From contig NC_135765.1 in NCBI RefSeq assembly GCF_052425735.1, forward strand, positions 25,854,001 to 25,918,000: DNA of 64,000 nucleotides, in the 5' to 3' direction. The position numbers were made by a program, and so were the translations under genes. Source of the stretch: Oculina patagonica. Lineage: Eukaryota. The notes under the pieces were generated by a model. It worked only from the letters and a program-made list of their open reading frames with translations. It made no database searches and was not told where the DNA came from. This document shows positions 41,123-41,292 of the stretch, piece by piece; positions within the stretch are counted from its first letter, which is position 1, and each line of letters begins with the position of its first letter.

Positions 41123-41292
41123 ACACACTTGTAAATTAGGAGTTGTGGCACAAACCGTGACAACTCGCTCGGCTCGCCCAGGCTCGCCTCGCTCCTTGTC
41201 ACAATTTGTGTCCACAACCCTAATTTACAAGTGTGCGCGGAACGCAAGACGCCTTTCTACCCCACTCGCGAAACGAGTTGCAAAAAGGCGTT
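41123..41292 (+). repeat. Left TIR with terminal hairpin (41124-41235)
   Basis: cacacttgtaaattaggagttgtgg...ccacaac(t)cctaatttacaagtgtg is self-complementary; the TIR is the reverse complement of 50943-51116 apart from a few indels and substitutions. Confidence 0.95.

Follow-up and report, generated by a model that had tools for sequence, protein, structure and literature searches.

A terminal fold-back in a coral Polinton: a possible self-repairing telomere of a protein-primed element

Introduction

The described systems closest to the element presented here are the Beta-class adintoviruses (PMC8502044) and the coral polintoviruses (PMC11131425). According to the available sections of these papers, they share with it an OTU-type pPolB without a match to PF03175, an rve integrase, an A32/FtsK ATPase, a size of 15–21 kb, TIRs and a TSD. 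The element of the stony coral Oculina patagonica differs from them, as described there, by a terminal fold-back with a covarying outer stem, the absence of an adenain-type protease by Pfam, a 5-bp TSD, and ends made of AC repeats rather than AGT. Neither 'hairpin' nor 'palindrom' occurs in the main texts of the two papers.

Terminal palindromes are reported in Halocafeteria virophages and in PLV subtype 4 by a preprint of July 2026 (bioRxiv 10.64898/2026.07.28.741278), where, in the available text, they are found preferentially with non-pPolB replication genes, hairpin priming is proposed and an excision model based on TIR annealing is already in print. Like the coral element, these are rve-integrating elements whose palindrome lies in the TIR and adjoins the TSD. 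However, they come from protists, the example given is 52 nt long and that text holds no isomer or covariation test, whereas the coral element combines pPolB, an animal host, palindromes of 100–190 nt, one orientation and arm-to-arm covariation.

The telomeres of Streptomyces (Tpg/Tap) are another point of comparison. In the available part of PMC5449611, an end that has become truncated is restored by being extended on a fold-back next to the terminal protein, and the telomere loops are closed by sheared G:A pairs. Both systems have a palindromic 3' end and one orientation; the coral element also has a terminal-protein-like part and predicted G·A pairs, and would share the repair on a fold-back. 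Streptomyces, however, has an internal origin with patching of the ends, a separate Tap primase and several short palindromes, and the repair described there is demonstrated for only up to 4 nt. Parvovirus termini (AAV ITR; MVM, PMC1185569, from the sections available) resemble the coral end by a hairpin of about 115 nt, stem asymmetry and CGAG/GAGC repeats; unlike parvoviruses, the coral element has no HUH-SF3 Rep, no flip/flop, no conserved T/Y arms, and carries a dsDNA-type gene set with an integrase. A closed hairpin telomere of the protelomerase/poxvirus kind was not supported, with no recombinase family match in the frames scanned and no isomers among integrated copies.

The window analysed here is a stretch of 64,000 nucleotides of O. 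patagonica (assembly GCF_052425735.1, contig NC_135765.1, positions 25,854,001 to 25,918,000, forward strand), and all positions below are those of this window. A first-pass annotation had proposed parvovirus-like fold-back termini on a Polinton-like element. This kind of Polinton was already known; what appears to be new is the occurrence of fold-back tips together with pPolB in an animal, their covariation and their single orientation. Indeed, no account of fold-back tips of animal pPolB Polintons was found in the Polinton or mavirus EMALE main texts searched, nor of outer-stem covariation or single orientation in the same literature, an earlier mention being possible in Kapitonov and Jurka 2006, in Repbase or in supplements.

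A decayed Polinton and its longer relatives

The element spans positions 41123–51116 (9,994 bp) and is bounded by TIRs of about 165 nt, the tips of which are inverted copies of each other with a 5-bp duplication outside (Table 1). In a public contig, the left flank is immediately followed by position 51117, with a single TSD copy; as this empty site runs straight from the left into the right flank, it confirms the boundaries of the element. The TSD is 5 bp long in 12/12 paired elements, the range for Polintons/Mavericks being 5–8 bp. The window copy is a decayed Polinton, a broken derivative from which, by blastn against relatives, a deletion of about 4.7 kb took out pPolB and most of the integrase. 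Between 43444 and 50153, its alignment with a relative at 94% identity shows 179 gap openings in 7 kb, and this excess of small indels may be due to assembly error rather than to decay. LicD-family ORFs are present on both sides of the insertion (3484–3996, 34799–35515 and 56011–56763) and are probably a host tandem gene cluster, while further inverted-repeat elements (18064–18948, 26364–26591 and 63796–63963) are likely host MITEs or fold-back repeats.

Table 1. Features of the Polinton and of its terminal fold-backs in the window
Feature	Position	Strand	Basis
Left TSD copy, 5 bp	41118..41122
Left TIR, about 165 nt	41123..41286	+
Terminal arm of outer stem: AC-repeat end, variable middle, conserved box	41123..41148	+
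Inner stem, 5' arm, with 2-nt mismatch at nt 33–34	41149..41163	+
Apex, tandem CGAG units on the 3'-ending strand, two predicted GA/GA internal loops	41164..41195	-
Inner stem, 3' arm, with 1-nt bulge (41211)	41196..41211	+
Inner arm of outer stem, one base short in this left copy	41212..41235	+
Internal-deletion junction, about 4.7 kb lost	41345..41348		blastn against full-length relatives
Remnant of rve integrase N-terminus	41347..41493	-	tblastn; rve match on relative
A32-type packaging ATPase, frameshifted, part	43614..43962	-
Probable major capsid gene (presumed), frameshifted	44182..45303	-	without Pfam match
Broken genes, presumed PW-like (+), PZ-like (-) and penton-like (+), and one further (+)	45401..49757
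Right TIR	50951..51116	-
Right terminal fold-back, perfect 25-bp outer stem; + strand is 3'-ending	51003..51116	+
Right TSD copy, 5 bp	51117..51121

Since pPolB is deleted from the window copy, the gene set was read from stretches of longer relatives. These encode a 1,284-aa pPolB with an Endonuclease VII insert (PF02945), an rve integrase (PF00665, E 1.9e-6, under the curated cut-off) and an A32-type packaging ATPase (PF04665) which, with the TIRs and the 5-bp TSD, bear out the earlier assignment to Polintons. ORFs of 417 aa and 223 aa are presumably the double and single jelly-roll capsid proteins, and none of the capsid, penton, PW and PZ candidate ORFs has a Pfam match. An adenain-type maturation protease, which is typical of Polintons without being universal, gave no Pfam match in 76 frames, where a divergent one could be missed. 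These 76 frames (15 + 61), scanned by Pfam and for motifs, also gave no HUH, SF3 helicase or recombinase/protelomerase family, so that the proposed check for such genes in elements sharing the TIR came out negative, and the only Walker A motif across 12 stretches is that of the ATPase.

The pPolB of the relatives keeps all Exo I–III and Pol A–C motifs and the Cys and His of its vOTU part (Cys200/His293). Its Ser-Gly at 152, a motif present in 111/120 homologues, sits between a helix and a strand in a single-sequence model of low confidence (mean pLDDT 38.9), which is where the available text of bioRxiv 10.1101/2024.03.18.585575 places the terminal-protein linking residue. The DH motif of the Endonuclease VII domain is found in 110/120 homologues, although nuclease inserts of PolB have been interpreted as passengers of homing or intein origin. 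As the polymerase does not match PF03175, and as divergence of OTU-PolB from PF03175 is a criterion of Beta-class adintoviruses in the available part of PMC8502044, its sequence points to the Beta class. The combination of hairpin ends with protein-priming-type termini proposed by the first-pass annotation is supported by their co-occurrence with a pPolB that has terminal-protein-like and vOTU parts.

The Polinton load of the genome is very high, with 440 candidates of the window pPolB type and 716 for PF03175, many of them with long open frames, and the capsid-like and neighbouring genes vary between copies with near-identical ends. No relative was found among viral contigs or phage records, a PDB sequence search yielded nothing useful, and matches in the Atlas were only to unnamed clusters, mostly arthropod.

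Architecture of the terminal hairpin

The segment 41124–41235 is predicted to fold as a single long DNA hairpin (-40.5 kcal/mol, z -7.6), 0/200 shuffles being as good. The right end, 51003–51116, reaches -44.1 and -41.7 on its two strands, with z about -12 (strongest -12.6). Both ends therefore fold far better than shuffles, and the outer ~112 nt of each TIR are indeed a palindrome, as first described. The 25-bp stem of that description is perfect at the right end and interrupted at the left end, for which it had been quoted, because the inner arm lacks one base there.

The hairpin is built from a 25–26-bp outer stem starting at nt 1–2, a 1-nt bulge, a 15-bp inner stem that holds a 2-nt mismatch, and a 32-nt apex; a GTT-N-TGG box is conserved at nt 20–26 of the terminal arm. 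The base of the hairpin lies at nt 1–2, i.e. at the element end, in every parsed family. The bulge between outer and inner stems occurs in 115/115 parsed termini, the parsing pattern itself requiring a bulge.

The apex had been thought to carry two mini-arms giving a Y/T shape; the folding model returns instead a rod without branches, broken by 2x2 internal loops. Taken by itself, the 35-nt apex shows no advantage over shuffled sequence (z +1.5 and +1.1), and its shape is not kept across families. A stable Y/T apex was thus rejected on the apex z scores, the rod prediction and the apex comparison, although small arms remain possible since the folding model scores 2-nt loops and sheared pairs poorly. 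In the family of locus L107, the apex carries GCGAAGC, a very stable DNA mini-hairpin, on the 3'-ending strand, and short arms may form there.

Copies and orientation

Exact terminal arms of the window subfamily occur 130 times in the genome, 100 of which were listed and examined. Among these 100 tips, 97 continue into the inner TIR and 86 face a partner 10–37 kb away, 41/43 facing pairs being spaced 15.4–20.8 kb; five more have a partner seen via its inner arm, and nine have none listed. Around 16 tips the stretches are odd: 13 extend well into element sequence, one (L269) meets an N gap, and two (L273 and L282) stop at TIR nt 142 and 130. None of these 16 stretches, three of which stop early, showed a palindrome standing alone with a TSD of its own. 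Given the 86/100 listed tips that are paired and the 97/100 that run into the inner TIR, the hairpin is conserved and the possibility that it is an independent MITE was rejected.

A flop probe found 0 sites against 50 for the matching flip probe, and no terminal-type arm was found at the inner position among the 100 listed arms; the flip/flop isomers anticipated from a parvovirus-like mechanism are therefore not seen in integrated copies. Loci chosen by polymerase rather than by hairpin have the same polarity; the parser presupposes flip polarity, and it failed on only 3/100 loci, one with an N gap, one without a terminus and one with a duplication. Five left TIRs (L002, L106, L116, L249 and L277) contain tandem duplications of the hairpin region, in which the inner hairpin copy is devoid of the first 10–30 or more nt of the terminus.

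Covariation of the outer stem and the strand that folds

The covariation set comprises 115 distinct termini, the pPolB identity of the families reaching down to about 57%, and 113 were used after two, including the window left end, were dropped for a 1-nt stem indel. Base pairs 2–19 are fully paired in 109/113 and the entire outer stem is perfect in 104/113, whereas the first 13 bp of the inner stem are perfect in only 39/113. The perfectly paired 26-nt outer arms represent 23 distinct sequences that differ at 16 positions, and the inner 2-nt mismatch, present in 52 termini, is kept across 8 perfectly paired outer types. Homogenisation thus follows a gradient, being strict at nt 2–19, frequent at nt 20–26 and rare beyond. 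As judged from sequence, selection alone would explain this covariation poorly, and a simple explanation would be that one arm is copied from the other, with the effect dying away at nt 20–30.

Three hybrid termini (L052, L061 and L116) carry an apex and a 5' inner arm that belong to a different subfamily (L086 type), and in each the terminal arm matches its own inner arm. The copying would therefore probably go from inner to outer arm, a direction deduced from what is probably one recombination event, which a double crossover or an unsampled donor would also explain. The first nucleotide is A in 110/110 termini, the facing inner base being C in 50; an A regardless of the facing base is what would be given by slide-back protein priming, which is established for adenovirus and phi29.

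Several asymmetries bear on the strand that folds. Read on the 3'-ending strand, the mismatches that persist at nt 23, 26, 33 and 34 are G·T, while the shared mismatches at nt 30, 35 and 39 are of wobble type on neither strand. GA/GA internal loops occur on the 3'-ending strand in 28/31 apex types and in 6/19 parsed metagenome hairpins (three of these parses being of the wrong segment). Tandem sheared G·A pairs are stable in such a context; the available text of PMC6061790 deals with sheared G:A structures only in general. In one metagenome family (L160), the apex CGAG units are on the opposite strand, possibly owing to one ancient hairpin inversion. The polarity of the wobbles and of the GA/GA loops favours a folded, single-stranded 3' end, which is predicted to be flush, with template beyond, and able to self-prime. 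Of the proposed single-stranded or self-priming stage, the part that stands is thus the folded 3' end, to which the strand asymmetry fits; rolling-hairpin replication does not stand with it, and transient self-priming for end repair is plausible.

Fold-backs in other families

The metagenome set comprised 80 loci, 37 of which include the start of the polymerase together with 350 nt or more of upstream sequence. An inverted repeat of at least 40 bits was found upstream in 23/37 loci against 1/37 control stretches, four of the 23 being unlike the window terminus type; the other 14/37 have no such repeat. Among 17 candidates, 15 parse as AC-repeat termini with 15–18 of 18 outer pairs, and 13 metagenome termini have GTTCTG at nt 20–25. 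The interiors of these hairpins are unrelated in sequence and are often plain rods, and several families have the bulge elsewhere or lack it. The same architecture with unrelated sequence occurs in families 55–70% identical in PolB, while the most distant loci (47–50% identity) have no such terminus in the available sequence.

An unrelated Alpha-class family without Endo VII has a shorter, imperfect fold-back of 65 nt starting from nt 1 (z -5.7, 5/5 termini), which weakens the idea that hairpin and Endo VII strictly go together. This fold-back is identical in L137 (6685–6749), L139, L143, L287 and L288, in a family with AGT ends and a 6-bp TSD. Another Alpha family (L149) has a TIR without fold-back (z -0.5), the Alpha comparison covering two TIR types, with TIR pairs found for 2/5 tiled elements. 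Polintons can thus do without a hairpin, as shown by the 14/37 metagenome loci and by one Alpha TIR.

A telomere, an excision signal or a hairpin origin?

One orientation, an outer stem of about 20–26 bp that stays paired despite sequence change, and a base at the element end form the pattern to be explained. We give about an even chance to a functional telomere of a protein-primed Polinton, which would fold into its own duplex origin and repair its own end. Upon displacement or release of a strand, the 3' end of that strand would fold back on the inner arm, giving a local duplex that displays the AC-repeat end and the GTT-N-TGG box and is capped by the tandem G·A rod. The folded end would be protected, and the polymerase could trim it and re-extend its last ~20 nt on the inner arm, which would account for the arm-to-arm copying. 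The duplex origin would then be the priming site for the terminal protein, and synthesis running through the terminal arm, the apex and then the genome would keep the single orientation. The coral end would work like a Streptomyces telomere rather than like an AAV ITR, by analogy and not by homology. We infer folding, end repair and priming in vivo from integrated copies, not from replication intermediates; the stop of self-primed extension at the inner boundary is unaccounted for in the telomere reading, and the available text of PMC5449611 makes the case that replicons of the adenovirus and phi29 types can do without end repair of this kind.

Among the alternatives, an excision signal is rather unlikely, and it would be compatible with the telomere as an added step: a cruciform would place a four-way junction precisely where element and host DNA meet, pPolB would cut it with its Endonuclease VII domain, either diagonal cut would leave a full terminal strand, and TP-primed synthesis would complete it in flip orientation. 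The position of the hairpin base in every parsed family and the conserved DH motif agree with such a role, as does the fact that T4 Endo VII cuts cruciforms and bulges. However, the Alpha family without Endo VII also folds back, a 32-nt apex would make cruciform extrusion costly, the nuclease inserts may be passengers as noted above, and cruciform cutting alone leaves the arm-to-arm copying unexplained. Less probable still is a mechanism resembling the left end of MVM, where the 3' hairpin would prime full-length synthesis and dimers would be resolved asymmetrically, the 1-nt bulge shifting the spacing, which would leave a single active origin arm in the dimer bridge and yield only flip. The flush 3' end with template beyond, the conserved bulge and the one family with a reversed apex fit this mechanism, as does the one-nucleotide difference that inactivates one arm in MVM, according to the available text of PMC1185569; but no HUH Rep was found in the frames scanned, the bulge is displaced or absent in several metagenome families, and hairpin priming is not needed where the TP-vOTU module is intact.

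The homogenisation gradient and the hybrid termini, which follow the inner arm, would also be expected if the terminal protein primed on the inner arm and the primer then jumped to the terminal arm, the first ~20–26 nt of each new strand being written from the inner copy. This translocation is improbable: it needs the 5'-ending strand folded or exposed, whereas the wobble and GA/GA polarities favour the 3'-ending strand, and failed jumps should yield flop ends, none of which was seen. An AAV-type rolling hairpin with terminal resolution is very improbable. The length of the coral hairpin, its terminal position and its GAGC-like repeats, which resemble the AAV Rep-binding element, recall an AAV ITR, but the probes gave only flip sites, the listed arms no exception, the frames scanned no HUH/SF3 gene, and the apex shape varies widely; only selection of one isomer by the integrase could rescue it. 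The parvovirus-type replication of the first-pass annotation thus largely failed, on isomers in integrated copies, on HUH/SF3/protelomerase genes in the frames scanned and on the modelled apex. There is equally little to be said for a by-product without function, i.e. a chance quasi-palindrome perfected by template switching or an independent MITE. Palindromes do homogenise by template switching in general, but here the same architecture recurs with unrelated sequence, homogenisation comes to a halt around the box and leaves the inner stem out, and the unpaired tips checked include no solo palindrome with its own TSD.

Concluding remarks

We know of no settled account of how Polintons start replication from, or escape out of, the integrated state. 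The covariation signal indicates the extent to which the end is rewritten, as well as the strand that folds, and the structure of the end can be turned into defined oligonucleotides as substrates for the three parts of pPolB concerned, TP, exonuclease and Endo VII. The association of a hairpin with pPolB runs against the tendency of the 2026 preprint, in which palindromes go with non-pPolB elements, and suggests that the tips of Polinton TIRs are worth re-screening for fold-backs.

More largely, an outer stem that changes and yet stays perfectly paired suggests that these protein-primed elements mend their ends or make them anew by themselves. It is conceivable, though we would not expect it, that the fold-back and the Endo VII domain of pPolB act together as a self-excision device, in which the structure would mark the element-host boundary, the nuclease would free the end, the inner arm would serve the polymerase as template for rewriting the final ~20 nt, and the terminal protein would prime there. 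If true, this would be the missing route for integrated Polintons out of the chromosome, and also a eukaryotic telomere type that unites protein priming with fold-back repair.
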